Source: Bacteroidales bacterium (GTDB lineage: Bacteria > Bacteroidota > Bacteroidia > Bacteroidales > JAADGE01). From it: a stretch of 39,706 nt of DNA. This document shows, piece after piece, positions 234 through 33,893 of the stretch (positions are counted from its first letter, which is position 1; every line of letters starts with the position of its first letter). The notes under the pieces are model-generated. The model worked only from the letters and a program-made list of their open reading frames with translations. It was not told where the DNA came from and ran no database searches. Made by a program: the position numbers and the translations under genes. The DNA is taken from the NCBI GenBank assembly GCA_029934705.1, contig JAOZLS010000003.1:1-39706 (forward strand), written 5' to 3'.

Positions 234-821
234 TTAATATTTTTTTGTTTTTGCAGATACTTTCTTTTGAATATATGCTGTAGCATAGAAAACTGCAATA
301 GCAAAAACTACAAAAAGAAAAATAAATACTTCTCTTGATATTCCTAAAACATCGTAAAGCATTTGAGGTCCTTTTGCTCCGCTTACTAAAAACTCGTCGT
401 ATAAAGGATATCCAAGGTCAAAAATTATTGCTCCAAGAATAACTCCTCCAATAAATACCATTGCATCTATTTTACCAATTGCAGCAGCACATGCACTAGT
501 TCCAGGGCAAAAGCCTCCAATTATAAACCCTAAGCCCATAATTATTCCACCTACAATAGCAGGTCCAACAAAAAATGAGTTTGTATATATTTCATTTATA
601 TCAATTAGTTGAAAGTAGTCGAAAAAAGCTAGTCCAACGGCAGCAGTTAGTGCAGCCATAAAAAACACTCTTAATACTACGAAATCGTATCCATAAAAAA
701 CTCCAGCAAGTTTTCTTGAAGAAGAAAAGCCTGCACTTTCAAGTATTATCCCAAAAAAGATTCCTATAACCAAGGCTAATACGAAGCTCCATTCGTCTGA
801 TGCTGTAAATAGTGGTCCCAT
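234..821 (-). CDS. YeeE/YedE-family sulfur-compound transporter subunit
   Basis: Multi-TM, Gly-rich protein with the GFCPGT motif; adjacent to a second YeeE/YedE gene. Confidence 0.85.
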   Translation of the reverse strand: MGPLFTASDEWSFVLALVIGIFFGIILESAGFSSSRKLAGVFYGYDFVVLRVFFMAALTAAVGLAFFDYFQLIDINEIYTNSFFVGPAIVGGIIMGLGFIIGGFCPGTSACAAAIGKIDAMVFIGGVILGAIIFDLGYPLYDEFLVSGAKGPQMLYDVLGISREVFIFLFVVFAIAVFYATAYIQKKVSAKTKKY

Positions 822-874
822 TTTATATAATATTTATTATGTATTTGTCTTTAAAAAAATTAATTTCATTTACT

Positions 875-1393
875 CTATATCCAAAGCTTTCTAAATAGCC
901 ATGCAAAAATATAGCCTGAGCCAAATATTGCAGCAACTACAACAAAACCTGACGTAGCAAGTACTGCCATTCCATCTAATCCGGCACCACTAGTACAACC
1001 TCTACCAAAAGATGCTCCTATTCCAAATAATGCACCACCAATTAAGGCAGCAACGAGTCTTTTCTTAGATGTAATTTTAGGAGAATGTTCTACTTTCAGC
1101 TTTAACCTACCAGCAATTGCTCCCGAAATAAAACCTCCAATAAAAACTCCAAGTATCATAAATACAAGTCTGTTTTTTAAAGGATTTTTTCCATCTTTAA
1201 AATATTTTGAAGAATAAGTATCCGCAGCATGTGTGTGGCTAGGTGCTACAACATTTACAATTTCAGCCCCTACTCTTTTAAATGCTCCACTTGCCCCCAA
1301 GCCTTCGCGGGTTAAGTAAAACGAGAATAATATTACTATGCCTAATAGAACTCCCGCTAAATATGAGTTCATATATTTTTTTGTACCTTCCAT
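875..1393 (-). CDS. YeeE/YedE-family sulfur-compound transporter subunit
   Basis: LGAS and GRGCTSG motifs; about 4 TM helices. Confidence 0.85.
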   Translation of the reverse strand: MEGTKKYMNSYLAGVLLGIVILFSFYLTREGLGASGAFKRVGAEIVNVVAPSHTHAADTYSSKYFKDGKNPLKNRLVFMILGVFIGGFISGAIAGRLKLKVEHSPKITSKKRLVAALIGGALFGIGASFGRGCTSGAGLDGMAVLATSGFVVVAAIFGSGYIFAWLFRKLWI

Positions 1394-1419: not shown

Positions 1420-2439
1420 TTAGTAAAGATATCTAATAACTTGACCTGCATCTACCATTATAAAACGGAAAGCTAAACCTCCCCAGATAATTAATAATCC
1501 AGGAACAATTACAGGTATTTTAAACTTCATTAACTCCATTACTTCTAATATTAAAGGAATTGTTAATCCTAAGATTATAACATTTACCCAAAAAGTTACA
1601 GTAAACTCTCCACCAAGAAAATAACTAACAGTATGAACTTTTATTTCAGAACCTGCTTGATATCCCATAAACCAGTGAGTTATAAAGAACAACTCAATTA
1701 TTACTAATAGTATATCAATTTTACTATATGAAATTCTTTCAAAATGATCTTTTGTCATTATCATAAGTAAAGCAGCTCCTGTTGACAAGCCTGATGTAAG
1801 AAACAGTGGGCCTAATATTGCTGTATTCCATAAAGGACGTGCATTAAATGCCGACAATAAAATTCCAGTATAAACTCCTAGTACAATTGCTAATATTGCC
1901 ATTGCCCAAGCTAATGGTTTTCTATCCTTAACTATATACTTTTCAAAATCTCTAATGATTTTATGTTTCCAATCCCAGTCTTGTTCGGGCTTTGTGTCGT
2001 TGGTTGTAATAATCCAAGCTGCTATTTTTCGAATAAAGCCTAATTTACATTTGTGTACTGGGTAAATATCTTTTAAATACGAAAAAATCCAAATCATATT
2101 TAAAGGCATTATTAACATTAGAGTCCAAGCTCCCCATGACATAGGCGAGTCTAGTCTAATTGTTGTATATAGTTGCCAAAAATATAATGGATGATGCAAA
2201 TCATAAAGTAAAGCCATTAGTCCAATAACAATTGCACCAAATGCCACGATAGGACCGATTCTTACTGATGTTAAAAACTTTTTGTCTTTACCCATTATTG
2301 TTTGGTAGGCTGCAAAAAACAATAGTCCTGCAGCTAGTCCTCCTAAAAATAGATAAAGAGGAATTGACCAGTGCCATATATTCATTACAGGGTCAATATG
2401 AGGATTCATCCTCCCGCTTATTATAAGTTCTTCTTTCAT
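1420..2439 (-). CDS. psrC: NrfD/PsrC-family polysulfide reductase membrane subunit
   Basis: WHWSIPLYLFLGG, DLHHP, SPMSWGAW, YTGILLS...RPLW motifs; about 8 TM helices; follows the 4Fe-4S subunit. Confidence 0.88.
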   Translation of the reverse strand: MKEELIISGRMNPHIDPVMNIWHWSIPLYLFLGGLAAGLLFFAAYQTIMGKDKKFLTSVRIGPIVAFGAIVIGLMALLYDLHHPLYFWQLYTTIRLDSPMSWGAWTLMLIMPLNMIWIFSYLKDIYPVHKCKLGFIRKIAAWIITTNDTKPEQDWDWKHKIIRDFEKYIVKDRKPLAWAMAILAIVLGVYTGILLSAFNARPLWNTAILGPLFLTSGLSTGAALLMIMTKDHFERISYSKIDILLVIIELFFITHWFMGYQAGSEIKVHTVSYFLGGEFTVTFWVNVIILGLTIPLILEVMELMKFKIPVIVPGLLIIWGGLAFRFIMVDAGQVIRYLY

Positions 2440-2462: not shown

Positions 2463-2996
2463 TTATACTAAATAGAAAATTTGTGGCTTTGTTCCTGCTT
2501 CTGCTGCTAAAACTTTTATTCTTCTTACAGCTGTAATTCTAGAAACCTCACTATTTGGGTCATCTAAATCGCCAAAATACATACAAGTTGTTGGACAAAC
2601 CGACACACATGCAGGATCTTGCCCATTATTTATTCTATGGTCGCAGAATGTACACTTATCAACCCAACCTTCTGGGTGAACATAGCGAGCATCGTAAGGA
2701 CAGGCTTCAATACAAGAGCCACATCCAATACACTCTTCTGGTGTAACTTTAACAATTCCGCCTTCAATAACATGGCTTGCTCCTGTTGGGCAAGTTCTTA
2801 CACATGGAGTATCTTCACAATGATTACATCTCTCTGATCTAATTTGAAGATGTAGCCCAGGATATGTTCCTTCGACTGTTTCTGTTATCCAATCTCGTGA
2901 GTAACCTATAGGTATGTTATTTTCTGTTTGGCATGCGACTACGCAGTCACTACATCCGACACATTTCTTAGTGTCAATCGCCATTGCATATCTCAT
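2463..2996 (-). CDS. psrB: 4x[4Fe-4S] electron-transfer subunit (PsrB/PhsB/NrfC type)
   Basis: CVGCSDCVVAC, CNHCEDTPCVRTCP, CIGCGSCIEACP, KCTFC...PACVSVCP. Confidence 0.92.
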   Translation of the reverse strand: MRYAMAIDTKKCVGCSDCVVACQTENNIPIGYSRDWITETVEGTYPGLHLQIRSERCNHCEDTPCVRTCPTGASHVIEGGIVKVTPEECIGCGSCIEACPYDARYVHPEGWVDKCTFCDHRINNGQDPACVSVCPTTCMYFGDLDDPNSEVSRITAVRRIKVLAAEAGTKPQIFYLV

Positions 2997-3014: not shown

Positions 3015-5294
3015 TTAAATAATATTTACTTTTCTTGTTAATGGTTTATCAGAAGGATGTGGGTTTTCTGTAATAAATTTCACAAAGTTACCTCTCATTC
3101 CTGTTCCTCCCATTATTTTATCGTGCATTATGTGTGTTATTAGTTCTGAATCACTAGCACCTTTTCCATAAGACCTAGAAAGTCTATCGTCCTGTCGTCC
3201 AAATCCATGAACCATATATACCATGTCTTGCCTAATACGTTCTGTTATACGCACTTTAATTGGGAATGAAGAAATTACATCATCCTGATTTTTCAACCAA
3301 ACCTCTTGCCCAGCAGATAAATCCTCTAATTGAGCAATTTTAGGATTAACCCATAAGACATTTTCATCCATTAAATCATTTAAGTGTGGATTATTAACAG
3401 TTCTACCAAAGGTGTGCATTGGTGCTCTACCATAATTCAACCTATAAAACCCTGGTTGAGGTTCTGGGTGAGCAGTATATTTAGGCATAGCATCAAAACC
3501 CTCTTCAACTAAAGCTGTTGAGTATAGTTCAATTTTGCCAGTATTTGTTGAGAACTCGTGCTCTTCGCCATTTAAGAAATATAAATCGTTATACTCTCTG
3601 TCTATTTTCTTAACCCCTATTTTTTGCATTTCATCTAAAGAGCTCCCTATTTGCTTTAATTGCCAATCTAGCAGTTCTGTTATATCATTATAAGGTACAT
3701 AAGCACCTAAGCCAAGTTTTTCTGCTAACATTTTAGCCATTTCCCAGCCTGGCTTTGAGTCATATTTTGGTTTTGCAGCTGGCATTCTTAATGCAATTGA
3801 AGGTTCTCTGTGTTTTGACGTTCTAAGCATATCATATCTTTCAAGATATGTACATTCAGGTAAAACAACATCAGCATAACCTGTAATTTCGGCAGGCATT
3901 GTGTCAATCACAACTACTAATTCTAAATTTTGTAAAGCAGCTATTGTATTTTTTCTATCGGGTAAAGTTGTTATTAAGTTTGTACCATTAATAATCCAAG
4001 CTTTATACGAGCAATCTCTGTCAGGCGAAGGGATTGTTGCATCGCAAATTCCAGAAGCAAGAGCTAAGTCGGCAAGTTTAAATTTACCAGGTGTAGCATC
4101 TCTCCATGTATGACTAATTTTAGGATAAGCTGGATGTGGCATGCTTTTAAGTTTAATACCTTCCGGCTGGTAAAATCCACCACGTCGTCCCCAAGAACCA
4201 AGTATTGCATTTAAAATTGCAACAGCTCTTAGTCTCTGTGTATCATCCCCATACCAAGTTACGTGCCGTCCTGGATGTACAATTACTGCTGGTGAAGCAT
4301 TACCCATTGCACGAGCCGTTTTTCTTATTAAATCTGGTTTTAAACCGGTAATTCCATAAGCCCACTCAGGAGTGTTATTTTTAACATGTTCTTTTATTTG
4401 TTCAAATCCATAAGTATATTTTTCAACATACTCTTTATCATAAAGTTCTTCTTCAATAATAACATTAATCCATGTTAATAGTAATGCAAGGTCGGTTGCA
4501 GGTTTTATAGGAAGCCAAAAATCTGACTTACTTGCTGCGGTAGAAAATCTAGGGTCAACAGTTATGATTGTTGCTCCATTATCAATAGCCTGCGACATTT
4601 CCTGAACTTGCCCGTTATGCATATTTTCTCCAATATGCGAACCTATGAGTACAAGACATTTAGTATTTCTTATATCTGTTGGTTCAGGAGAACCAATACC
4701 TTTTCCAAAAGTTGCTATAAAACCAACTTCTCTAGGTCCACGACACTGTGCATAAGAAGGAGCAGATATACTATTTGTTCCGTAAGCCTTTAAAACATTA
4801 CCCCAAAACTTACCACCTGAACCATGAGAAAACATTGCAACACAGTTTGGCGAATATTTTTGAGCAACATTTTTAAGTTTATCGGCAATAACAGTAATTG
4901 CCTCGTCCCAAGTTGCTTTTCTAAAATATTGATTTCCATCTTCATCTTTCTCTCTAATAAGAGGATGTTTAAGCCTGTCTTCATCTTCGTACATTCCAAC
5001 TCCGCCTGTTCCTCTGGGGCAAAAACGTCCACTAGAATGTTGGTCGTCATTATTTCCAATAATTTTCCATATTTTTTCTTTTCCATCAACATTTTTAGTA
5101 TATGTCCATCCTGCACACTTCCAAAAACATATTTCGCAGTAGGTTGGATATCTTTTAGCTTTGGAATCATCTGGAATATCATTGTCCTTTTTTAAAAAAC
5201 TAGGAACCCAGTTTAAAATAGGAGTTGCAGCTAAAGCTAACCCACCAACCCCCATTGATGATATTTTTATAAATTGTCTTCTAGTAGTTTTCAT
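3015..5294 (-). CDS. psrA: Molybdopterin oxidoreductase catalytic subunit, polysulfide/thiosulfate reductase (PsrA/PhsA) type, Tat-exported
   Basis: Start moved to ATG 5294 (MKTTRRQFIK, twin-arginine signal). CEICFWKC...CPRG [4Fe-4S] motif, candidate Mo ligand Cys in AQCRGP, ADVVLPECTYLER, C-terminal dinucleotide-binding domain. Confidence 0.88.
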   Translation of the reverse strand: MKTTRRQFIKISSMGVGGLALAATPILNWVPSFLKKDNDIPDDSKAKRYPTYCEICFWKCAGWTYTKNVDGKEKIWKIIGNNDDQHSSGRFCPRGTGGVGMYEDEDRLKHPLIREKDEDGNQYFRKATWDEAITVIADKLKNVAQKYSPNCVAMFSHGSGGKFWGNVLKAYGTNSISAPSYAQCRGPREVGFIATFGKGIGSPEPTDIRNTKCLVLIGSHIGENMHNGQVQEMSQAIDNGATIITVDPRFSTAASKSDFWLPIKPATDLALLLTWINVIIEEELYDKEYVEKYTYGFEQIKEHVKNNTPEWAYGITGLKPDLIRKTARAMGNASPAVIVHPGRHVTWYGDDTQRLRAVAILNAILGSWGRRGGFYQPEGIKLKSMPHPAYPKISHTWRDATPGKFKLADLALASGICDATIPSPDRDCSYKAWIINGTNLITTLPDRKNTIAALQNLELVVVIDTMPAEITGYADVVLPECTYLERYDMLRTSKHREPSIALRMPAAKPKYDSKPGWEMAKMLAEKLGLGAYVPYNDITELLDWQLKQIGSSLDEMQKIGVKKIDREYNDLYFLNGEEHEFSTNTGKIELYSTALVEEGFDAMPKYTAHPEPQPGFYRLNYGRAPMHTFGRTVNNPHLNDLMDENVLWVNPKIAQLEDLSAGQEVWLKNQDDVISSFPIKVRITERIRQDMVYMVHGFGRQDDRLSRSYGKGASDSELITHIMHDKIMGGTGMRGNFVKFITENPHPSDKPLTRKVNII

Positions 5295-5313
5295 AAAAAA
5301 TCCTTTAATATTT

Positions 5314-5333
5314 AATGTGATATACATCACATT
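5314..5333. promoter_or_regulatory. CRP/FNR-type palindromic operator AATGTGA-TATACA-TCACATT
   Basis: Exact TGTGA-N6-TCACA with matching flanks, between the predicted psrA -7 element and the psrA start. Confidence 0.7.
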
Positions 5334-5534: not shown

Positions 5535-5542
5535 TAAATTTG
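5535..5542 (+). promoter_or_regulatory. -7 element (TAAATTTG) for the octaheme cytochrome operon
   Basis: TAnnTTTG match about 57 nt upstream of ATG 5600. Confidence 0.55.
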
Positions 5543-5599
5543 CTGATAAGTAATTTTAATATTATTATATATCAACTTTTAATTATAAAAAAATCAAAG

Positions 5600-7228
5600 A
5601 TGCTAAACACTACTAAATCACGTAAAGCTTTTTTTAAGACTTTGGTTACTTTTACACTAATTTTGTTTCCATGGTTTTTTGCCATAATATACTTAAATTA
5701 TGTAGAAGATGACACAAAGCCTAAGCAGCTTATGCTAAAACATTACAAAGTCGATAGGCGAAAACTTGTTGACCACACAAAATTTGAAATTTTACAACAA
5801 GATTTTGAGACAGCTCACGATGTTACAGAAGCATGTTTATCATGCCACAATAAAACAGCCGAAGAGTTTATGACTTCTAACCACTGGAACTGGTCAAAAA
5901 CAGATAGTGTTAACGGAGAGCCTATAACTATTGGGAAAGAAAATGTTCCTAATAACTATTGTATAGGAATTAAAAGTAATGAGAAACTATGCTCTCATTG
6001 TCATGCAGGCTATGGTTGGGCTGATAATGATTTTGACTTTAAAGCAGAAAAAAGTGTAGATTGTTTAGTTTGTCATGATAATACAGGAAGATATAAAAAA
6101 CCAGGACCTGGCAAAGGTAATGTTGGAGCTGGTTATCCAGACCATAAAATAGACCTAAGGTTTATAGCATCTCATGTTGGAGCTACAAGTAAAAAAACTT
6201 GTGGATATTGTCACTTTTATGGTGGTGGTGGTAACAATGTTAAACATGGTGATTTAGAAGCAGCTCTTTTAAGTAAAAAAGATTGTACTAAAGAAGTTGA
6301 TGTTCACATGAACCATGAAGGCAAAAACATGGACTGCTCAGAATGTCATACTACAAGCCATCACGAAATTAGTGGTAATATGTACACATTATCAACTTCC
6401 CCTGAGAATGCAACAACTTGTGTTCAGTGTCATACCGACTCGCCTCATAAGAGCAAATTATTAAATACTCACTTTAATACAATTGCTTGTCAAACATGCC
6501 ATATACCTGAATATGCAAAAGTAAACCCAACGCGAGTATGGTGGGACTGGTCAACATCTGGCAAACATAAAGATGGAAAACCATATAATGCAGAAGATAT
6601 TGAAAGAAATGATTCAACATTCCAATATCATGCTAAACATGGAGATTTAATTGCTATTAAAAATGCTACTCCAGACTATATATGGTTTAATGGGCATGCC
6701 GACATTCATTTATTTGGCGACAAATTTGAAGGAGACACTCTAGTTATGAATAAGCTTGAAGGTTCATTTGAAGATCATATAAATCCAGCACATCCGGAGC
6801 ACCCTTCGAAAATATACCCTGTAAAAATCATGAGAGGTAAACAACCTTACGATACAGAACACAGAATGCTACTTCAACCTAATACTTTTGGACCAAAAGG
6901 ATCAGGTGCATATTGGGCAGATTTTGATTTAGATAAAGCTTTTGAAAATGGTATGAAAGCACGGAATTTACCATATAGTGGCAAATATGATTTTGTTTAC
7001 ACAGAAAGTTACTGGCCTTTAAATCACATGGTATCTCCATCAGACAAGGCATTATCTTGTAAAGAATGTCATAGTAGAGATGGTAGATTAAGTAAATTGT
7101 CTGGATTTTACATACCAGGAAGAGACAATAATAACTTAGTTGATACAATAGGAATTTTATTAATTATCTCCGCATTAATTGGAGTTGTTATTCATGCTAC
7201 AATAAGAATTATAAGTAAACGTAACTAA
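5600..7228 (+). CDS. otr: Octaheme c-type cytochrome, tetrathionate reductase (OTR) family, with N- and C-terminal membrane helices
   Basis: Eight CxxCH motifs (CLSCH, CSHCH, CLVCH, CGYCH, CSECH, CVQCH, CQTCH, CKECH) plus OTR-like HWNW, GKEN..NNYC, HAGYGW, GGGGNNVKHGDL, WDWS. ATG 5600 is preferred over TTG 5540, which overlaps the promoter. Confidence 0.88.
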   Translation: MLNTTKSRKAFFKTLVTFTLILFPWFFAIIYLNYVEDDTKPKQLMLKHYKVDRRKLVDHTKFEILQQDFETAHDVTEACLSCHNKTAEEFMTSNHWNWSKTDSVNGEPITIGKENVPNNYCIGIKSNEKLCSHCHAGYGWADNDFDFKAEKSVDCLVCHDNTGRYKKPGPGKGNVGAGYPDHKIDLRFIASHVGATSKKTCGYCHFYGGGGNNVKHGDLEAALLSKKDCTKEVDVHMNHEGKNMDCSECHTTSHHEISGNMYTLSTSPENATTCVQCHTDSPHKSKLLNTHFNTIACQTCHIPEYAKVNPTRVWWDWSTSGKHKDGKPYNAEDIERNDSTFQYHAKHGDLIAIKNATPDYIWFNGHADIHLFGDKFEGDTLVMNKLEGSFEDHINPAHPEHPSKIYPVKIMRGKQPYDTEHRMLLQPNTFGPKGSGAYWADFDLDKAFENGMKARNLPYSGKYDFVYTESYWPLNHMVSPSDKALSCKECHSRDGRLSKLSGFYIPGRDNNNLVDTIGILLIISALIGVVIHATIRIISKRN

Positions 7229-7278: not shown

Positions 7279-8613
7279 ATGAAAAAGCAAACATATATAT
7301 ATAGTGTCTTCGAAAGATTTTGGCATTGGTCTCAAGCATTACTAATCTTCTTTTTAATGCTTACAGGTTTTGAAGTACATAGCTCATTTGAACTATTTGG
7401 CTTTGAGAGCTCAGTTGAATGGCATAACACAGCAGGTTGGGCATTTCTAGTTTTAATTATATTTGCCATATTTTGGCATTTTACAACAGGAGAATGGAAA
7501 CAATATATTCCGACATTAGAACTTGTAAAAGCTCAAATAAATTATTACATTTTTGGTATATTTAAAGGAGCACCCCACCCTACTCACAAAACTAGACACA
7601 CTAAATTTAACCCATTACAACGACTTATTTATTTAGGACTTAAATTATTAGTAATTCCAATACAAGTTGTAACTGGTTTTATTTATCTTTCCTACATGCA
7701 CCCTGAACACTCAGTTGGTGCAGGGAATATAGAATTTATTGCAATTTTACATACAATTGGTGCTTTTGCATTAATAGCATTTGTTATTGCACACGTATAT
7801 TTAACTACTACTGGCGAAAAAGTTTTTATGAGCATAAAAGCAATGCTTACTGGTTGGGAGGTTGTTGATGTAGATGAAAAAGAAGAATATATTACAAACA
7901 TGAAGCAAGCAGTAGAGCATAGTACTGCAGGTTATTATAGACTTGACAATGAAGGTATTTTAACACAGGTAAACAAAGCTTGGTTAGAGATATATGGATT
8001 TAACAAAAAAGAAGATGTTGTTGGAAACCATTACAGTGCAACAAGAGATGAAAAACAAGTTAAAGTTTTAAAAAGCATTGTTGATAGAGTACTAGAGGGT
8101 GAAAAAATAATTGGACAACATGTTGTTAGAAAAAATAAAGATGGTAGCATTGGACAACACATTCTATCGGCAAACCCTATTGTTGAAAACGGCAAAACAG
8201 TTGGTTTAGAGGGTTTCATACTTGATATTACTGATATGGGTAAGGACTCGCAACACATGTATTCAGCAATAAGAAATAGTAGTGCAGGTTATTATAGAAT
8301 AAATGCCAAAGGTTATTTTGAAGAAGTAAATGAAGCTTGGTTAAAAATTTACAAGTGTGATGATAAATCTAATGTTATTAATCAACATTACTCAATAACA
8401 AGAAATCCTGAGAATGCAAAAGAGCTAGATGCAGTTGTTGAAAAAGTATTAAACGGAGGAAGTATTGCTAGTAAATTAGCCATCAGAAAATGTAAGGATG
8501 GTACAGTAGGAAAGCATATTCTTTCTGCAAATCCTGTTTACAAAAAAGACAAGATTGTTGGAATGGAAGGTTTTATTATTGATGTTACACTTGAAGAAGA
8601 AAAGAGTATCTAA
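7279..8613 (+). CDS. Cytochrome b (PhsC/Ni-hydrogenase cyt b type) fused to two tandem PAS domains
   Basis: N-terminal ~195 aa: FERFWHWSQA, WHN, KFNPLQRLIY, LH...AHVYL (four TM helices, heme His). C-terminal ~235 aa: two similar PAS repeats with a 357-nt period. Confidence 0.85.
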   Translation: MKKQTYIYSVFERFWHWSQALLIFFLMLTGFEVHSSFELFGFESSVEWHNTAGWAFLVLIIFAIFWHFTTGEWKQYIPTLELVKAQINYYIFGIFKGAPHPTHKTRHTKFNPLQRLIYLGLKLLVIPIQVVTGFIYLSYMHPEHSVGAGNIEFIAILHTIGAFALIAFVIAHVYLTTTGEKVFMSIKAMLTGWEVVDVDEKEEYITNMKQAVEHSTAGYYRLDNEGILTQVNKAWLEIYGFNKKEDVVGNHYSATRDEKQVKVLKSIVDRVLEGEKIIGQHVVRKNKDGSIGQHILSANPIVENGKTVGLEGFILDITDMGKDSQHMYSAIRNSSAGYYRINAKGYFEEVNEAWLKIYKCDDKSNVINQHYSITRNPENAKELDAVVEKVLNGGSIASKLAIRKCKDGTVGKHILSANPVYKKDKIVGMEGFIIDVTLEEEKSI

Positions 8614-8635: not shown

Positions 8636-8666
8636 AAAAAGCCAGAGACTAACTCTGGCTTTTTTT
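8636..8666. terminator. Bidirectional intrinsic terminator
   Basis: AAAAAGCCAGAG-ACTAA-CTCTGGCTTTTTTT between convergent genes. Confidence 0.8.
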
Positions 8667-8689: not shown

Positions 8690-9190
8690 TTATTCATAAT
8701 GAACACTACTTTCCCAAATTCCGTGAATATTGCAACCTAATACAATTTTTACAACATCGCCATTTTTTAAAGGTGCAAAAAAATCTTGTTTGTTACTTCC
8801 TTCTCCATTTTGTATTTCAATATGCTTATATTGTTCTCCATTAATAAACAATGTCATAAAATCAATCCAATGTTCTTCTACTGATGGATGAACAATTCCA
8901 GCAGAACCAACTAATACATTTATTACAACATAGCCTTTCTCGTCTTTTTCGCCAAATGTAATATCAGGAGTATGCTTATTCTCAAAGTCTGTTACATTAT
9001 TATAATCAGAAATTGTTATAGTATCCCTATTTATAATTAACTCTTCTCTTATTTTTTTTATAATCTCAGTTTTTTGCACAGTATCTGCTACCACATCTGT
9101 ATTTTCATCGCCATGCTCACAGCAACTATTTAAACTAAATACTGTTACCAGCATTACCGATGTTCCGAATAAAATTTTCTTTATACTCAT
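8690..9190 (-). CDS. Superoxide reductase (neelaredoxin/desulfoferrodoxin Fe-site domain), predicted lipoprotein
   Basis: NKHTP, HPSVEEHWID and CNIHGIWE give the His4Cys ligand set; N-terminal signal peptide with LNSC lipobox. Confidence 0.82.
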   Translation of the reverse strand: MSIKKILFGTSVMLVTVFSLNSCCEHGDENTDVVADTVQKTEIIKKIREELIINRDTITISDYNNVTDFENKHTPDITFGEKDEKGYVVINVLVGSAGIVHPSVEEHWIDFMTLFINGEQYKHIEIQNGEGSNKQDFFAPLKNGDVVKIVLGCNIHGIWESSVHYE

Positions 9191-10200: not shown

Positions 10201-10890
10201 ATGCCCAGATTATCAAAACCAGAAAGTTGTAGTAGATGCCCATATAGATGGAAATACATGGACTTGTTAGGACTACCAAATATAGATAAAATCCAAAACA
10301 ATTGCATTATTATTAAATTTAAAAAAGGAGAAACAATTTGCAAGCAAGGTACAGAAGTTACTCATGCATTATATTTGGCAAAAGGTGTTGTAAAATTATA
10401 TATTGAAGGGAAAAAGAATTTAATTCTAAAATTAATTAAAGGAGGAAGTTACATTGACCTACAAACTTTATTTGGCGACAAAAGATACAAATACTCGGTA
10501 GTTGCAACTGAAGAAAGTATGGTTTGTATGACTCCTATTGATTTAATGTTAGATTTAGCAAAAGAAAACTCTGAATTCCTATTTGAATTAACAAAAACAA
10601 TAAGCAATACTACTAACTTTGTATATCAAAAAATAAGTGATTTAAATAGGAAGCACCTTCGTGGACGACTTGCTGACACATTAATTTATCTTTCTGAAGA
10701 GATATACATGTCCAACAATTTTCACTTAACATTAACAAGAAACGAATTAGCAGAATTCTCATCTATGTCTATGGAAAATGCGGTTCGTATTTTAACTGAA
10801 TTTCGAAAAGACGAAATAATTAGTTTGAACGGACGAGAAATGGAAATAATTCACCCCGAAATGCTTGCTAGGATTAGTGAACTTGGATAA
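10201..10890 (+). CDS. Crp/Fnr-family transcriptional regulator
   Basis: cNMP-binding-like domain (FKKGETICKQG...KGVVKLY), RGRLADTL, HTH LTRNELAEFSSMSMENAVRIL; N-terminal CSRC. Confidence 0.92.
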   Translation: MPRLSKPESCSRCPYRWKYMDLLGLPNIDKIQNNCIIIKFKKGETICKQGTEVTHALYLAKGVVKLYIEGKKNLILKLIKGGSYIDLQTLFGDKRYKYSVVATEESMVCMTPIDLMLDLAKENSEFLFELTKTISNTTNFVYQKISDLNRKHLRGRLADTLIYLSEEIYMSNNFHLTLTRNELAEFSSMSMENAVRILTEFRKDEIISLNGREMEIIHPEMLARISELG

Positions 10891-14914: not shown

Positions 14915-17011
14915 TTATTCTGCTTGAGTGTTTTTGCTAATATCAATTGGGATTGTAAACCACAGTTTAGAGCCTTTATCTTGCTCCGATTCTAAACTCA
15001 TTTTTCCACCTAATAAATTCACCAAGCCTAATGAAATTGACAAGCCCAAGCCTGTTCCTCCATATTTTTTACTAATAAACTCTTCGGATTGTTGAAATCG
15101 GTCAAAAATTAATTTTTGTTTTTCCTTTCTTATTCCAATTCCTGAGTCTTTTACATAAAATGTTATGAGTTTTTCGGTACAAGTTGCTCCTAACTCTACA
15201 AAACCTGTTTCAGTAAATTTTATTCCATTCTGAATTAAGTTCGTTAATATTTGACTTATCCTATTTTCATCTGAAATAATACTAATATCTATGTCGCAAG
15301 TCTTGGTAAAAATAAGTTCAAGACCTTTTTCTTCGACCATTGGGGTGAAGATAGCAAATAACCTATCAAGCAATTTCTTAACATTAAATTTTTCGGGATA
15401 AATTTTAAGTTGTCCCACTTCTAATTTTGAAATTTCAAGTATATCATTTATTACTGTAAGCAGCTGATTACCGCTCGAATCAATAACTTCTAAATATCTT
15501 TTTCGTTCTTCTTTAGTTAATAAGTCATTATCTAATAATTGTGAAAAGCCTAATATACCATTAAGTGGTGTTCTTATTTCGTGAGACATATTGGCCAAAA
15601 ATGCTGATTTTAAGCGGTCTGCTTCTTCTGCTTTTTCTTTTGCATGAAGTAAATTCTGTTCGGCTTCTTTTTTTTCCGATATATCCTCTACAATTCCTTC
15701 ATGATACATAAATTGTCCTGAACTATCATAAAAAGCTGTTGCATTTTCTCGTATATGAATTATTTTTCGGTTATTATTCATCCAACGACTCTCAAAACCT
15801 ACAACTTCTCCTTTTTCTCTAATTATTTTATTAAAACGAAGTTTATCTTCAATATTTGCGTATCCTATATTTATTTTATTACTCGATATTTGGGCAAATG
15901 ATGTAAAACCAAGCAATTTTATTAATGCTGGATTTGCCATAATTATTTCACCTTTGGAGGATACTCTATAAAAGCCTAGTGCTGAATTATTATATATTGA
16001 TTTAAAACGTTTTTCGCTACTTTCTAAATCTTCTTGAGCTGATTTACGTTTTGTAATATCTGTAACATAACCATAAAAGTTAGTAATATTCATGTTTTCA
16101 TCATAAATTTGTGTTACAAATTGAGATAGCCAAATAATACTTCCATCTTTTTTTATTACTCTATAATCATCAACACTAAAATTTAAAATATTATGACTTT
16201 GTGCGGATTCTAAAGCTTTCCTTGGAATATCTACGTCTTCTGGATGTATAATTGATTTATAATGTATTTTTCCCGACAAGAATTCAGTATCGGTATAGCC
16301 AAAAATTTCTTTAACATTTGGCGAAACATATTCAATAGGCCAATTTGCACTATTTCCCCAATGAAAAACTACAACGTTACCACTCATAAACATGCTTCGT
16401 TCTTTAAGCAAGCTCAAATAAAGTTTGTAGTTTTCTCTTTCTGATGATTTTCTTTTACTTATGTCAAACCAAATTTCACCAATATATTTTACATTTCCAA
16501 ACTTATCTTTTATAGGAAAAAACCTTAGTTCTTTATAAATATTTGCAACAGAATCCCAAACTTCTTTCTTTACAAATGTACTAAATTTATTCACCGACTT
16601 AACAGGACAAAAATCGCAGGGTGTAGTTCTATTATAATGTAAATTATAGCATTTAGTAGTAGAAGAATCTATATCTTCAAATTTATTCTTATTTGTTTTT
16701 ATAATATTAAAATCATCATCTAAAATAATTAAATTTCCGGGCATAGCATCTAACACACTTTCATATAAAGTTTTTTGCTCTTCTATTTTATTCTTTAAAA
16801 CAGAAACATGGTCATAACTTTCTTTTAAAGCGTCGTTTGATGTTGCCAGCTCTTCATTAGAGGCTCTTAATTCTTCATTAAGTAGTGTATATTCTTGAAA
16901 TAAATACTCTGGTAACTCTTCTTCATTAGTATCTTGTTGCTTAACATGCAGAATATTCTCTAATTCTCTTACTCTCAGCCTTAAAACATCAATTTCAGAT
17001 AATGAATTCAT
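14915..17011 (-). CDS. Cytoplasmic multi-PAS sensor histidine kinase
   Basis: Three PAS-like segments; H-box FLANMSHEIRTPLNG; N, G1 and G2 boxes (NGIKFT, DSGIG, GGTGLGL); no TM and no receiver domain. Confidence 0.92.
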   Translation of the reverse strand: MNSLSEIDVLRLRVRELENILHVKQQDTNEEELPEYLFQEYTLLNEELRASNEELATSNDALKESYDHVSVLKNKIEEQKTLYESVLDAMPGNLIILDDDFNIIKTNKNKFEDIDSSTTKCYNLHYNRTTPCDFCPVKSVNKFSTFVKKEVWDSVANIYKELRFFPIKDKFGNVKYIGEIWFDISKRKSSERENYKLYLSLLKERSMFMSGNVVVFHWGNSANWPIEYVSPNVKEIFGYTDTEFLSGKIHYKSIIHPEDVDIPRKALESAQSHNILNFSVDDYRVIKKDGSIIWLSQFVTQIYDENMNITNFYGYVTDITKRKSAQEDLESSEKRFKSIYNNSALGFYRVSSKGEIIMANPALIKLLGFTSFAQISSNKINIGYANIEDKLRFNKIIREKGEVVGFESRWMNNNRKIIHIRENATAFYDSSGQFMYHEGIVEDISEKKEAEQNLLHAKEKAEEADRLKSAFLANMSHEIRTPLNGILGFSQLLDNDLLTKEERKRYLEVIDSSGNQLLTVINDILEISKLEVGQLKIYPEKFNVKKLLDRLFAIFTPMVEEKGLELIFTKTCDIDISIISDENRISQILTNLIQNGIKFTETGFVELGATCTEKLITFYVKDSGIGIRKEKQKLIFDRFQQSEEFISKKYGGTGLGLSISLGLVNLLGGKMSLESEQDKGSKLWFTIPIDISKNTQAE

Positions 17012-28743: not shown

Positions 28744-31700
28744 TTACATTTTAAATATTTCTAAAAATTCTTCATCTACTTCTGTTTCAACAATACCTTG
28801 TTCTGTAAGAATATCAAAATAATCTTTTACTTTTTTCACTAAAACATCACCTTCAACATATTCAAAATTAACCCTATCCAAAAATAGCTCAACTCTATCA
28901 ACTGGTTGTCGCATCATATCATAAGATAAACGAGCCGACTCGTTTCTGTGAGTATTAACCCAATTTATTGACTCTTTTAATTCTTCAAGTAAAACTTCTG
29001 TTACTTCGGGATTATTTCTTACAAACTCGCCTTTTAAAACAATACCTGCATTAGGAAAACTACCAAAACCTTTGTTATATTCATTCCATATTTTATTGTA
29101 TGATAGAATTGAAATAGGTTCGCCTCTATCTTCCATAATTTTTATTGCATAGCTAGCTTCTGGCTCTCTAAGAATTACTGTATCGGCTTGTCCTGTAACA
29201 AAATCTGCATAAATCTTTTCTGGTCTGCCAAATGGTTGTCCATAAACAAAATTAAAATCGGCAGGATTTAATCCACTTGCTTTAATCAAATATTTTGTGA
29301 TTTTTGCTGGTGGTGCTTCTTCAAAAAGTGGTGTATGAATTGTTTTTCCTATTAAATCTTTTAAATTTCTAGCTTGATAACCTCTTGTAAGAATTACAAA
29401 ATTATCCCAAACAAAAAGTGCTGGTATTTTAACATCACTATTTCTTAATTTAGCTGAAGTAATTAATGCTGAAAAACTTATATCAGCTTTTCCATTAGCA
29501 ATCCAAGCTAAATGTTTTTCGGTTTCCTCCCAAACTTTTAGTTCTTTAATGTTAACTGCTTTTCGTATTTTTTCAGACTGTAACAATCTCATCATCACAG
29601 GATATGCAACTGGAGTTGCCGACTGAATTACTACATCAAGTTTATTTGATTTTTCTTCATCTGTTTCGCCTTCTGTAACTTTTTTATGAAAATATATCCA
29701 AATTTCTTGATCATCTCTAACTTCGGTAACATGCTCGTAGCCCATTTCCGATAGCATATTAATCATTGGTGTAGGTTCAAATCGTTGAATTAATGTAAAT
29801 CCAGAGTCTTCTTCTATTTCATAAGATTTTTTTATAATTATATCGAAAGGGTCGGTCGTCATTGCCCTAACATCGAGTATTTCAAAATCTTCCTTACGCT
29901 CTTGCCAGTTTACAAGCTTTAATTTTTCATTATTAAAAATTGAAACTCTAAATTCTCGTGTTTTTTCTATATTGAAAGAAAAGTTTAAACCTGAAACTAA
30001 TTTTAATAGCTCAACAGGGTTTTCAACTGAAATTATTACAATATTTTCTTGAGCTTTTAAGGCTGAAACTTTTTGTATAATTTCTGGCATACTATCGTGG
30101 TTGTAAATATAGCGTTCAGCACTTTCGTCCCACGAAATATCGACTCCTGAAATATCTTCATCTTCCAAATTCATTTGTACACACTCAGGCATATTTTTAA
30201 GAAGCTTATTTTCTACTCCTAAAAATTTATTTAATGTATGAAGTATTTCACAAATTGAAATTCCTGTAATTTTTGCTGCATCTTTGAAAGAAGCATATCT
30301 GGCCAAAGTATTATACAAGGCAGGGTTCTGCAATTTTTTTAATTTTGGCGACAAAGTTGTTAATACATCTTTCAATTCAGGATGTCTATCTAAAACTTGC
30401 TTAATGTTAGACTTTGCTAAAACTGGCTCAATATCATTCTCCACCTCTTGCTCTTGCATAACAATTGCATTTACTGGGCAAACATTAAGTGCATCCTGAC
30501 AAAGCTTTTCTTCTTCAGCATTTTTAGGTTGTTTTTTTACAAATGCAACATTGCTATCGTTCATCTCAAAGTTCTTATCAGCAACTTCAACACAAGCTCT
30601 ACAAGAAATACATTCTTCCGTAACTAAATATTTGTTAGTTTCCATAATTTGTATATTATTATTTTTATTATTTTTTCTATATAATTTATACCAAACTATA
30701 AAGCCCGAAATAAGTATAAATAAAATACCTAAGCCTGAAAGTGGTATAAAAAGTATGTAATATTTTCCGAAAAATATTTTATAAAACCTAGCTGTATGAA
30801 TTTCTAAAGCCAAGTTCCATAACGATAATGGCGATTTTTCAATAATAACTTTGGGCATTTTAGTTAATTGCAAACTATTATTAATATTTGCTGCTCCAAA
30901 ATTATAATCAAATATTATTTCTTCTCCAAAAAAGTCTGTTGTAAAACCCGAAACTTTAAATTCACCTATCGGTGGTCCTGCCTTTTTTGGTGCAATATAT
31001 GGAGTCTTCTTTATATAATCTAATATTTCACCTGTTTCGGTATTCCATGCAAAAAGCCCTTCAAATGAGCCTACTAAATAAACATTAGTTGCCATTTTTT
31101 TAAAAACGGTTACCCCCATCATACTTGCTGGTGGCTGAGTTTTATATTTTTTTAGCTTAGTATTAAAATTATCATCGGAATAATAAAAGCCTTCTAAAGT
31201 TGCTATAATAAAACGGTCTTTTTCTTGATCATAAGTTATACGTCGTAAATTATCAAACCACGGGTTTGGTGAATCTAACTTGGTAAACGGGATTTTATCT
31301 ACTTTTGAATAACCAATAAGTGCAATTAATGGCGGACGAAGAAACATTCCTGTAAAAGTTGTTATTACTAGAAAAATTAAGGTTATCCAACCTATTTTAT
31401 TGTGCCATTTTAAATTCCATTTATTAGCTTTTTTAATTGATGATGCTCTTTTCTTTTTTTTCTTTCTACCTTTTAACCTAAAACCATTAACAAAAAAGAT
31501 AAGACCTGTAATACTTAAAAATATAAATATCAAACCTATTAAATCTACGAGTAATTTACCTATCTCGCCATAAATTTCGCCACTATGAATTAGCCAAAAG
31601 GTTTTAAAAAGTCCTATTTTGTTATCATAATTTTCTGGTTCAGGTAATATTTTTGTTTCAAAATTTATTGCATCAACTGTTGTTAATAAATGCGAACGAG

Positions 31701-32175
31701 TTAATACAAATAAAGTATCTTGTTTATATAATAAATCGACTATGCGTTTTTCGTGAACTGGTAACTCTTTTATTTTCCATAGTTTATTTGCAAAATCGTA
31801 TTTATATAAACCGAAAAAAGTTGCAGCAAAAAGCTCCTTTTTATCTGTTTGCAATAATTTACATACCTTACGATTATCAATTCCGCTAGGAAAACCTGTA
31901 TTAAAATCGGTAAATTTATTGAGTGATGAGTTACTTAACCAAATACCAATATTACCATAAGTTAACACACTGTCCTTATTTATTTTAAGTGTTGATTTAA
32001 CGGCTGCATTATTCCAGTTTTTATATTCAAAATCTTTAGGTAAATACTTTCTATCAACATCCATAAACGAGAATGCTTCGCGATGATTTAAAACAATTCC
32101 CGATAATGAAAATAAAATAATAAATATTGTAAGTATGACTCCTAGCCATTTATGGTATTTCTTAAAAAAACTCAT
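28744..32175 (-). CDS. Chimeric ORF: PepSY-associated TM protein + [4Fe-4S] ferredoxin + DUF1858 + DUF2249-like + NMT1/SsuA-like substrate-binding fold
   Basis: aa 1-500: HKWLG…SGIVLNH, LIHSG, KWHNK, LEIHTAR. From Met at 30645: CISCRAC…CPVNAI; NIKQVLDRHPEL…LQNP; LDVRA…FEPTPMINML; GKADI…GQADTVILREP…FPNAGIV. Confidence 0.75.
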   Translation of the reverse strand: MSFFKKYHKWLGVILTIFIILFSLSGIVLNHREAFSFMDVDRKYLPKDFEYKNWNNAAVKSTLKINKDSVLTYGNIGIWLSNSSLNKFTDFNTGFPSGIDNRKVCKLLQTDKKELFAATFFGLYKYDFANKLWKIKELPVHEKRIVDLLYKQDTLFVLTRSHLLTTVDAINFETKILPEPENYDNKIGLFKTFWLIHSGEIYGEIGKLLVDLIGLIFIFLSITGLIFFVNGFRLKGRKKKKKRASSIKKANKWNLKWHNKIGWITLIFLVITTFTGMFLRPPLIALIGYSKVDKIPFTKLDSPNPWFDNLRRITYDQEKDRFIIATLEGFYYSDDNFNTKLKKYKTQPPASMMGVTVFKKMATNVYLVGSFEGLFAWNTETGEILDYIKKTPYIAPKKAGPPIGEFKVSGFTTDFFGEEIIFDYNFGAANINNSLQLTKMPKVIIEKSPLSLWNLALEIHTARFYKIFFGKYYILFIPLSGLGILFILISGFIVWYKLYRKNNKNNNIQIMETNKYLVTEECISCRACVEVADKNFEMNDSNVAFVKKQPKNAEEEKLCQDALNVCPVNAIVMQEQEVENDIEPVLAKSNIKQVLDRHPELKDVLTTLSPKLKKLQNPALYNTLARYASFKDAAKITGISICEILHTLNKFLGVENKLLKNMPECVQMNLEDEDISGVDISWDESAERYIYNHDSMPEIIQKVSALKAQENIVIISVENPVELLKLVSGLNFSFNIEKTREFRVSIFNNEKLKLVNWQERKEDFEILDVRAMTTDPFDIIIKKSYEIEEDSGFTLIQRFEPTPMINMLSEMGYEHVTEVRDDQEIWIYFHKKVTEGETDEEKSNKLDVVIQSATPVAYPVMMRLLQSEKIRKAVNIKELKVWEETEKHLAWIANGKADISFSALITSAKLRNSDVKIPALFVWDNFVILTRGYQARNLKDLIGKTIHTPLFEEAPPAKITKYLIKASGLNPADFNFVYGQPFGRPEKIYADFVTGQADTVILREPEASYAIKIMEDRGEPISILSYNKIWNEYNKGFGSFPNAGIVLKGEFVRNNPEVTEVLLEELKESINWVNTHRNESARLSYDMMRQPVDRVELFLDRVNFEYVEGDVLVKKVKDYFDILTEQGIVETEVDEEFLEIFKM

Positions 32176-32280
32176 CTTTTATATATCTTTTTCTATAAGC
32201 TGTTTTTTCTATTTTATGAAACAACTCGTAATTTACAATCTAGTAAAACTTTATTAATCTGCATTAAATAATTATTAAAC

Positions 32281-33468
32281 TTACCAGTCTAATAATTTTC
32301 TATCTCCTTCAATTTTCTGTATTTCAGATATTTCTTGCGAAACTTCCAAAACTCCTTTGTATTCGTTATTTTTATTTCGTACTGCAAAATATTGAATAAG
32401 AACATATTTTGGTCCTAAATGTAGCCAAAATGAAGCAACATTTTTTTCTCCCGACTTAAATGATTCAACTATTTTGTCAACAATATGAACACTTTCTGGG
32501 GGATGACAATTTTGCAATTTACGTCCTACAATTGATGCTGTTCTTGGGAAAATACGATGTACTGGGTCCGAAAAAAATCTTACTGTATCATTTTCATCTA
32601 CATAAGTAATGTCAACAGGCAAATGATTAAAAATCATTTCTATTTGTTGAACAGAAACTTCACCTGTCGCAAATTTTATAACATCATCCTTATTTACAAC
32701 AGATTGTATTTTCTTTTTAGTAGCCTCAACTTCAACAAAAGGTAAACCTAATTCGACAGTTTGCTCAAGCATATTTTCCAATACCTCATGCTTAATTGTT
32801 TCAAGCATTATCGGAAATAACACTTTTTCTTCTCTAAAAATAATTGTATTAATATTGAAAAACACAACACTACTTATTTTATTAAAAGCGGTTAAATCGA
32901 AGTTTTTTGCTTCCAATAATTCTAATGTCTTTTTTATGTTTCGCCTAATATCATCGTGAAAGGACCACATAAGTTTTACACATTGATGCTGCTCCCATTT
33001 TTGCTCTAAAATAGGGAATAATATGTTTTCTTTTACTGTGTAATGAAGTGTGAATTTTTCAAACTCTTTAAAAGTAAGAATAAGCTCTTTAACTGCGTTT
33101 ACATTATATTTTACATTAAGCTCTTTTATATATTTTCTAGAATCTTTTAATTTTTGTAAAATTATAGCGTTATCTTGTTCTAATAAGTTTATAAAAGAGC
33201 TTTTTTGAGCTTTTATTGCGGGGTAATTAGATAAAGTTTTATATAAAATATTAAATAATTTATTAGACACAGTTTTCATGTCTTCAATATTTACATTTTG
33301 CTCAAAAAGTACATCAAAAGTGCTTAAAATATCTTGAGGAATATAGTTTTCAGTTATTATTCCATATTTTTTTACGAGTTCGCCTCCTTTTTCGCCCTTT
33401 ATAACTCCCAACATATACATAGTAAGGTCGTTAACTCTTTTTTCTGCGGTATTTGAAAATTTTGACAT
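32281..33468 (-). CDS. DUF438-type hemerythrin + PAS (PAS_10-like) protein
   Basis: HYTVKENILFP, MWSFHDDIR and REEKVLFP hemerythrin motifs; C-terminal NHLPVDITYVDENDTVRFFS…NCHPPES. Confidence 0.85.
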   Translation of the reverse strand: MSKFSNTAEKRVNDLTMYMLGVIKGEKGGELVKKYGIITENYIPQDILSTFDVLFEQNVNIEDMKTVSNKLFNILYKTLSNYPAIKAQKSSFINLLEQDNAIILQKLKDSRKYIKELNVKYNVNAVKELILTFKEFEKFTLHYTVKENILFPILEQKWEQHQCVKLMWSFHDDIRRNIKKTLELLEAKNFDLTAFNKISSVVFFNINTIIFREEKVLFPIMLETIKHEVLENMLEQTVELGLPFVEVEATKKKIQSVVNKDDVIKFATGEVSVQQIEMIFNHLPVDITYVDENDTVRFFSDPVHRIFPRTASIVGRKLQNCHPPESVHIVDKIVESFKSGEKNVASFWLHLGPKYVLIQYFAVRNKNNEYKGVLEVSQEISEIQKIEGDRKLLDW

Positions 33469-33479
33469 ATTATATATTT

Positions 33480-33893
33480 TTAAAATTTTGATATTTCATT
33501 ATAATCTAAATCAGATAAGGATTTATTTCTAAATACCTCATCAAATTTATCTCTTACACTTACCCATGAACTATGCATAATACAAGGGTTTTCGTCTGAA
33601 CATTGATCAAAGCCCAAGACACAACCACTATATTTATCACTCCCATCAACTGACTCTAAAATATCAATTAATAATATTTGATCTGTGCTTTTATCAAAAG
33701 AATAGCCACCATCTCGTCCTTGAATACTCTTTATAAAACCAGATTTTGACAAAGCTGTTAGTAACCTTCTTAAATACTTGTCAGAAATATGTAAGTTGTC
33801 TATAAGATATTTTGCAGAATATAACTTTTCTGGCTCTTTAGCCATAAAACCTAATATTCTTAATGCATACTCCGATGTTTTGGATAACTTCAT
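33480..33893 (-). CDS. Rrf2-family transcriptional regulator with Fe-S ligand set
   Basis: SEYALR, SIQGRDGGY wing, C-x6-C-x5-C-x2-H (CVLGFDQCSDENPCIMH). Confidence 0.92.
   Translation of the reverse strand: MKLSKTSEYALRILGFMAKEPEKLYSAKYLIDNLHISDKYLRRLLTALSKSGFIKSIQGRDGGYSFDKSTDQILLIDILESVDGSDKYSGCVLGFDQCSDENPCIMHSSWVSVRDKFDEVFRNKSLSDLDYNEISKF

Follow-up and report, generated by a model that had tools for sequence, protein, structure and literature searches.

What could a pair of sensor domains do when it is joined to a respiratory cytochrome and followed by no output domain? This question is raised by an open reading frame at positions 7279..8613 (+) of the window, by which we mean the entire analysed stretch of 39,706 nucleotides (nt), contig JAOZLS010000003.1 of a Bacteroidales genome (assembly GCA_029934705.1). 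The frame encodes 444 amino acids (aa), a cytochrome b domain followed by two PAS domains, and it lies just downstream of otr, a gene for an octahaem cytochrome c of the tetrathionate reductase (OTR) family. An earlier note, made from the DNA letters only, suggested either a sensor-gated quinol dehydrogenase or a membrane redox sensor that signals in trans, for example to Crp/Fnr or an orphan kinase. Our favoured answer, to which we assign a rough probability of 0.45, is that the PAS pair is a cytoplasmic sensor that tunes quinol oxidation or the flow of electrons to OTR. The architecture itself is real, complete and without an output domain.

The missing output domain is the only reason to suspect an artefact, be it a kinase gene cut short, an assembly chimera or a remnant in decay. 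Several observations speak against this. The stop codon (8611-8613) comes 9 residues after the last strand of the second PAS domain, and a two-way terminator-like hairpin (8636..8664, 12 pairs with T-runs) lies between it and the convergent gene. The whole gene is spanned by Logan contigs from two studies (X1, 6009 nt; X2, 4945 nt) with 0 differences; one of these is possibly the source of the window, in which case the other is independent. A word-indexed protein search found at least 120 clusters of 401-465 aa, 53-69% identical and with PF01292 and PAS families, among the best 120 of 600 matches, and the labelled ones come from Bacteroidetes, Bacteroidales or Chlorobi-labelled metagenome-assembled genomes (MAGs). 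Three further clusters with PF01292 and PAS are present in the ESM Atlas (443, 368 and 376 aa; 50-62 members each), where they are commonest in Bacteroidota. Proteins of this length also occur in 13 of 401 genomes of the order, and the 18 two-PAS loci that we collected have open frames of 437-466 aa. The C-termini of the relatives end at the same place as that of the window protein, and mean column identity in the fused-family alignment is 67%. We therefore treat an artefact as excluded, its probability being next to nil. The proposal in the earlier note that the C-terminus be checked against a truncated kinase is thereby answered, and the architecture is conserved beside otr far beyond this assembly.

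Domain searches and structure prediction agree on the composition of the protein. Pfam places PAS families at residues 208-319 and over a second stretch, and both PF00989 (49.1 bits) and TIGR00229 of NCBIfam (81.2 bits) likewise match two stretches. Neither library reports a kinase, GGDEF or HTH domain in the 444-aa protein, just as had been noted. With no HisKA/DHp or HATPase domain, and with a stop codon and terminator in place, the protein is not a sensor histidine kinase, either full or truncated; nor did we find a cytochrome b-PAS-kinase form among longer proteins, in a search of limited sensitivity. An AlphaFold2 model built from 49 relatives has four long helices (10-34, 42-69, 112-139 and 148/149-177/179) and two canonical PAS cores (217-316 and 336-435) with a predicted local distance difference test score (pLDDT) of 85-91. 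A simple hydropathy scan puts three of the four helices above its threshold.

The cytochrome b domain (residues 1-197; 7279..7869, +) has the four transmembrane (TM) helices that were originally read from its sequence. PF01292 (Ni_hydr_CYTB) matches residues 8-192 with almost its entire profile (positions 2-179 of 179), at E 3.7e-28 and 98.9 bits, the cut-off being 30.1. Modelled alone, this part again has four long helices (pLDDT 80.8; predicted template-modelling score, pTM, 0.73), and its two ends are predicted to pair as a small two-strand sheet (residues 2-6 with 193-197). The best folds for this model are HyaC (4gd3_A, E 1.3e-3) and FdnI (1kqf_C, E 1.4e-3), with TM-scores of 0.53-0.61 (0.61 for 1kqf_C); since these E-values lie just above 0.001, the match is a moderate one. 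The next fold is CybB (5oc0, E 0.39); apart from it, HyaC and FdnI are far ahead of every other chain. A sequence search of solved structures with the cytochrome part gave no match. The closest NCBIfam model is that of PhsC, of which the protein is not a member: the equivalog cut-offs were missed for PhsC (NF011582, 114.7 of 204 bits), the HyaC type (53.7 of 121.5) and FdnI (39.5 of 115.85).

Six histidines (16, 34, 49, 100, 158 and 172) are invariant in all 49 family members, and four of them (H16, H49, H158 and H172) are invariant across fused and unfused forms. These four lie in helix 1, helix 2 and, spaced 14 apart, twice in helix 4. They match what we take to be the haem ligands of FdnI, from which a haem-by-haem pairing would presumably follow. 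We thus regard the domain as a probable four-helix di-haem cytochrome b of the FdnI/HyaC type, predicted to bind haem and oxidise quinol. The sequence N111-P112-x-Q114-R115, also invariant in 49/49, presumably resembles quinone-site residues of FdnI, and this conserved N-P-x-Q-R in the cytoplasmic loop is likely to be the quinol site.

The partner of the cytochrome is OTR. The otr gene (5540..7228, +) encodes eight CXXCH motifs, with hydrophobic segments at both ends of the protein (residues 30-55 and 531-560), and scores 535 bits with TIGR04315 against a cut-off of 375. It ends at 7228, and the cytochrome b-PAS gene begins at 7279 on the same strand. This arrangement is very general. At 72 of 73 cytochrome b loci (14/14 in species genomes and 58/59 found by genome search), the gene immediately upstream in the same orientation is an otr homologue, and the only locus without one starts at a contig end. 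All 16 two-PAS loci with long flanks have the order otr, cytochrome b-PAS. The cytochromes at 44 of the 73 loci are of 205-270 aa and have no PAS domain, which bears out the remark that OTR partners are normally stand-alone proteins of about 200 aa.

Which side of the membrane the PAS pair occupies can be approached through natural fusions. In four proteins (P0122-P0125, 926-964 aa), a periplasmic multihaem cytochrome c is followed by one TM helix, a short linker and a cytochrome b. This order implies a cytoplasmic N-terminus for the cytochrome b, and four helices would return the C-terminus, and with it the PAS pair, to the cytoplasm. The lysine-rich N-terminus and the 70-115 loop agree with this topology. 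As a separate observation, the C-terminal helix of OTR (531-560), together with the P0122-P0125 fusions, supports a physical complex of OTR and cytochrome b as well as the proposed topology. The first PAS domain starts about 20 residues past the last membrane helix, with a short helix in between and a strand that pairs with the N-terminal strand.

The two PAS repeats occupy residues 205-323 (7891..8247, +) and 324-444 (8248..8610, +). They are closely similar, as the earlier note had recognised, with 47% identity over 111 aa (E 1e-40). The 357-nt period that it described is also visible in the DNA: at this offset, 61.6% of bases agree over 336 nt, compared with a mean of 32% and a maximum of 36.9% for 39 other in-frame offsets, and the stretches at 7921 and 8278 agree at 20 of 21 bases. 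Repeat 1 has Y219, W235, H251, S253, R256, R284, H294, S297, P300 and F313; repeat 2 has Y338, W354, H370, S372, R375, R403, C405, H413, S416, P419 and F432. The two histidines pointed out in each repeat are conserved in 44 to 49 of 49 full-length relatives, as are their companions, or nearly so. In the first repeat, the counts are 44 for H251, 49 for R256, 43 for C286 and 49 for H294; in the second, they are 48 for H370, 47 for R375, 45 for C405 and 46 for H413. The window protein itself has N286 where 43 of these relatives have Cys. Over 35 PAS domains of fused proteins, the invariant columns include A-G-Y, N-x-A-W, R80, H90 and P96, and H47, S49, R52, D84 and E-G-F-I are at least 90% conserved.

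The same kind of PAS domain occurs well outside the cytochromes. Searching 1.84 billion representative proteins with the PAS pair yielded 11,956 matches at E <= 0.001. Among the 175 best other proteins examined (P0121-P0295), 107 have a PAS domain with both histidines. Such domains number 110 among the 432 that were scored, mostly a single one in each protein, and about 10 of the 107 proteins are themselves variants or fragments from the cytochrome family. The proteins with this PAS are mostly large multi-PAS histidine kinases, and their recurring signature is Y, W, H, F, S, Q, R, C, H, S, P, F; in P0121, a PAS of this subtype stands directly before the kinase core. The combination H47, R52 and H90 is confined to 12 of the 432 domains, from 9 proteins of the cytochrome family. 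Three apparent PAS-only matches (P0148, P0149 and P0157) were rejected as fragments or internal-start calls of the fused family, P0148 being the PAS region seen in locus L056. The signature marks a distinct PAS subtype, with a pocket of two His and one Cys, that is shared with many histidine kinases. A sensor function of the pair is plausible because both copies keep this polar signature, common to kinase PAS domains, and they have done so despite diverging to the level of identity given above.

What the pocket might hold is a harder question. The PAS fold is found twice in the model, with VIA Z scores of 14-16 to many PAS structures for residues 218-319 and 333-438. The fold matches of the full model are generic single or tandem PAS domains (LOV, ARNT, TodS-type and others), tied within 1-2 Z units. 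By sequence, the PAS pair matches only the CitA PASc domain among solved structures (E 0.009), and PAS profile A2 has no solved relative at E <= 0.001, with weak rows only, up to E 5. Haem-PAS domains of the FixL, DosP and Aer2 types are no better than other PAS types by sequence or fold. We describe the pocket as a putative ligand- or cofactor-binding site. As a rough and unsupported estimate of its occupant, haem is possible and a small molecule or metal only slightly less so; an empty pocket is unlikely, and flavin somewhat more unlikely still.

These results bear on one alternative, namely that the PAS domains carry haem or flavin as redox cofactors and extend the electron path to a cytoplasmic donor, in the manner of NOX or Fre-MsrQ. 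The two conserved histidines per PAS at pocket positions would suit this idea, as would the di-haem membrane domain to which the pair is fused. A weak alignment with the LOV domain of YtvA (E 0.24) also puts conserved residues on flavin-pocket positions, with H47, Y48, S49 and R52 on the N-C-R..Q motif and H90 and S93 on the two flavin-binding Asn. However, in that same weak alignment the LOV/flavin motif is not kept, H-Y-S-x-x-R standing in its place and His and Ser at the Asn positions. Moreover, neither haem-PAS nor flavin-PAS domains stand out in the searches, PAS-less orthologues serve the same OTR, and the kinases with this PAS need no electron wire. We judge this alternative very unlikely.

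A second alternative is that the pair senses nothing and is a scaffold, which joins two cytochrome b/OTR units or stabilises the complex. PAS domains commonly dimerise, and the top fold matches are all dimeric or tandem PAS assemblies. A homodimer prediction with two full-length copies and alignment A1 scored 0.00 and counts neither way. A scaffold would leave unexplained why the polar pocket residues (two His, Arg, Cys and Ser) are kept in both copies and in the kinases of other phyla, and PAS-less orthologues assemble without it. It is an improbable explanation in our estimation.

The distribution of the fusion gives a further perspective. In a phylum-wide sample of 401 genomes, 55 have a match to the cytochrome b, and the PAS form is in the window's genome only. 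A sample of 401 genomes of the same order has 126 with a match, of which 13, the window's included, have the full two-PAS form; 20 matches were not itemised, so these counts apply among the matches listed. The one-PAS form (321-392 aa) occurs in at least 15 further genomes by PAS match, with four more by frame length alone, and the remaining matches in this order are stand-alone forms or more distant PF01292 paralogues. An open frame of 476 aa at locus L035 seemed to be an exception; the frame there is simply open further upstream because the DNA is GC-rich, and the locus encodes a stand-alone cytochrome.

Among the 73 cytochrome b loci, 44 have no PAS domain, 11 have one and 18 have two. A maximum-likelihood tree of the 73 domains unites all 29 PAS-bearing rows in a single group of 31, whose support is 89 in the Shimodaira-Hasegawa-like approximate likelihood ratio test (SH-aLRT). 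The 18 two-PAS rows and five one-PAS rows form a clade with support 95, next to which six one-PAS rows with a long helical linker are grouped. The PAS labels change 5 times on the tree, as against 26 when shuffled; since this comparison ignores kinship, it indicates clustering and not a dated event. The tree fits one origin followed by duplication and occasional loss. The linker-type one-PAS forms have a helical linker of about 45 residues and a C-terminal helix, and a 510-aa variant with two linker-type PAS domains exists. On two contigs, two pairs of otr and one-PAS cytochrome b stand in tandem (G517 C62, locus L063, and G580 C167, locus L071); in these, the whole module, sensor included, was evidently duplicated.

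Signalling in trans, the second of the two possibilities raised in the earlier note, would take the redox state of the cytochrome b haems or the quinone as input, which would report the electron flow to OTR, and the PAS pair would transmit it to a soluble regulator or kinase, in the way of PAS-only proteins that act via a separate partner. The lack of an output domain in cis and the presence of the same PAS subtype in kinases elsewhere are in its favour, as is the coiled-coil-like helix in which the linker-type one-PAS forms end. The partners that had been named do not fare as well. A Crp/Fnr-family regulator (10201..10890, +; Pfam and NCBIfam) lies near the fused gene, and of the 16 two-PAS loci with long flanks, 6 have such a gene close by, which gives some support to a trans route. 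However, Crp/Fnr is found also by the PAS-less locus L013, so we rejected it as a PAS-specific partner; it is likely to be a transcriptional regulator of the locus. The kinase (14915..17011) was rejected as well: it lies 6.3 kilobases (kb) from the cytochrome b-PAS gene, behind ECF-sigma/FecR genes, its PAS domains are of another kind, unrelated to the fused pair, and a kinase core is present in the fetched flanks of only 2 of the 16 loci. There is also no second PAS of this subtype for homotypic pairing in the window's own genome (95% complete), the next match scoring 33 bits compared with 165-181. The sensor role proposed in the earlier note is plausible, given the pocket signature, while no trans partner is specific to the fused form. 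We consider signalling in trans rather unlikely.

This leads us back to the favoured reading, in which the output of the PAS pair is the cytochrome itself. In the proposed mechanism, OTR and the cytochrome would form a respiratory module of two genes, the second of which encodes the subunit in the membrane. The cytochrome b would oxidise menaquinol and send electrons across the membrane to the periplasmic, membrane-tethered octahaem reductase. In one lineage of the window's order, a distinctive PAS would have been added to its C-terminus, first as a single copy and later as two. A ligand, or a redox state, in the His/His/Cys/Arg pocket would alter the PAS pair, and this change would tune quinol oxidation or OTR electron flow. 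The outcome would be a post-translational valve on a sulfur-compound, or possibly nitrite, respiratory branch.

The argument for this mechanism is largely one of economy. In most lineages, OTR is served by a cytochrome b that has no PAS at all, so the pair would be an accessory outside the catalytic path. The cytochrome is the most economical target, given that these PAS-less orthologues exist and that neither an output domain nor a partner specific to the fused form is present. It is also the most likely output because the PAS region starts next to the cytoplasmic loop with N-P-x-Q-R. Five positions (97, 107, 110, 185 and 193) split PAS-bearing from PAS-less cytochromes; all are on the cytoplasmic face, and three of them flank N111-P112-x-Q114-R115. 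They give a hint of coupling between the PAS pair and the cytochrome.

It is important to emphasize that a number of points weigh against this reading. The five positions may mirror shared ancestry alone, given that the two groups are separate clades. What the analysis establishes is the architecture and its completeness, conservation and synteny, the common grouping of the PAS-bearing forms and the signature of the PAS subtype, whereas topology, quinol site, ligand binding and gating are inferences. The monomer model does not confidently dock the PAS pair on the cytochrome (pTM 0.51), and the linker-type one-PAS forms indicate that a close apposition of PAS and cytochrome is not universal; their C-terminal helix would be well suited to binding a partner. 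The quinol site and the haem ligands are assigned by analogy with FdnI, the sequence and fold searches single out no cofactor or ligand for the pocket, and the nearby Crp/Fnr genes leave the trans route open. We are doubtful of a bolder version, in which the pair binds a cofactor or metabolite through a new His/His/Cys pocket and directly switches the transmembrane electron path of a PhsC-like cytochrome b. If this were true, the pocket would define a new class of ligand-binding PAS domains to which those of many histidine kinases also belong, and sulfur-compound respiration would be regulated at the enzyme and not at the gene, along a path that possibly consumes proton-motive force.

The gene neighbourhood points to sulfur-compound respiration. 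In the window, a divergent operon resembling psr/phs encodes a molybdopterin subunit (3015..5330, -), a 4Fe-4S subunit (2463..2996, -) and an NrfD membrane subunit (1420..2439, -). Beyond it lie two open reading frames of the YeeE/YedE-type sulfur transport family (234..1393, -), of 195 and 172 aa, which correspond to the first and second halves of the Pfam model. Among the 16 two-PAS loci, 7 have a tandem rhodanese upstream of otr, 6 have Crp/Fnr and 4 have the psr-like trio; beyond these and otr, the most widespread gene families are common to at most 3 of the 16. The tandem-rhodanese gene (350 aa; L005:3188-4240), which is absent from this position in the window, lies directly upstream of otr in those 7 loci and ties the module to the chemistry of thiosulfate or persulfides. 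A role of OTR enzymes in nitrite reduction is also discussed (PMC7509429).

Two other parts of the window merit a brief description. Convergent to the cytochrome b-PAS gene is a gene for 166 aa (8690..9190, -) whose product combines an iron domain of the desulfoferrodoxin/neelaredoxin type with a hydrophobic, lipoprotein-like N-terminus ending in Cys-Cys. The protein would be exported and resemble superoxide reductase, and its homologue is not conserved in the 15 other two-PAS loci. Farther away (28744..33893, -) is a second redox-looking cluster with a 1143-aa fusion of PepSY_TM, ferredoxin-type 4Fe-4S, DUF1858 and DUF2249; beside it are a 395-aa protein with hemerythrin and PAS_10 and no output domain, and then an Rrf2-family regulator.

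As far as is known, respiratory chains are regulated mainly by transcription and by separate sensors that monitor the chain from outside, e.g., ArcB, Aer and FixL. With a sensor pair fused to the subunit that oxidises quinol, a terminal reductase would be controlled directly and post-translationally. A two-gene system with natural versions that have zero, one and two PAS domains is well suited to asking how PAS acts without an output domain. The ligand of this widespread two-His/one-Cys subtype, once identified, would annotate many histidine kinases. The question also bears on the physiological role of OTR in Bacteroidota of anoxic marine sediment and vents, where OTR adjoins rhodanese, psr/phs-like and sulfur-transport genes. 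We found no description of the cytochrome b-PAS fusion in full-text literature searches (supplementary gene tables were not covered), which is in line with the earlier note's view of the architecture as uncharacterised, and the database names of the fused form are automatic only (e.g., 'PAS domain S-box protein' and 'cytochrome b/b6 domain-containing protein').

Several known systems come close to this protein. With the membrane subunits of formate dehydrogenase-N, hydrogenase-1 and thiosulfate reductase (FdnI, HyaC and PhsC), it has in common a full-length PF01292 match and four helices. In contrast to these, whose partners are Fe-S/Mo or NiFe enzymes, it is paired with an octahaem cytochrome c, and its 240-residue tandem-PAS extension is in no solved member of the class. 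As for sensors, in Aer and ArcB a cytoplasmic PAS reads the state of electron transport, and CetB/CetA of Campylobacter is reportedly a bipartite sensor in which a PAS-only protein acts via another protein. All of these act on a kinase or a chemoreceptor as their output and stand outside respiratory enzymes, whereas the window's PAS pair is covalently on the enzyme's own membrane subunit, with no output partner evident. The multi-PAS kinases (P0121, P0126, P0130, P0132 and others) share the signature AGY, N.AW, H(F/Y)S, R.C.DG, H..S..P and EGF. They differ at position 52 of alignment A2, which is Gln in the kinases and Arg in the cytochrome-linked PAS, and in having one copy of the subtype, followed or surrounded by other domains. 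Another close system is the stand-alone pair of otr and cytochrome b561, known from genomes such as an Ignavibacteriae MAG, for which electron intake from the quinone pool is proposed in PMC7509429. That pair has the same gene order and proteins as the window's, and the cytochrome b parts are 54-66% identical to the window's; its cytochromes are of 205-270 aa and, unlike the window form, lack PAS domains. The fused form is an uncharacterised variant of a known respiratory module.

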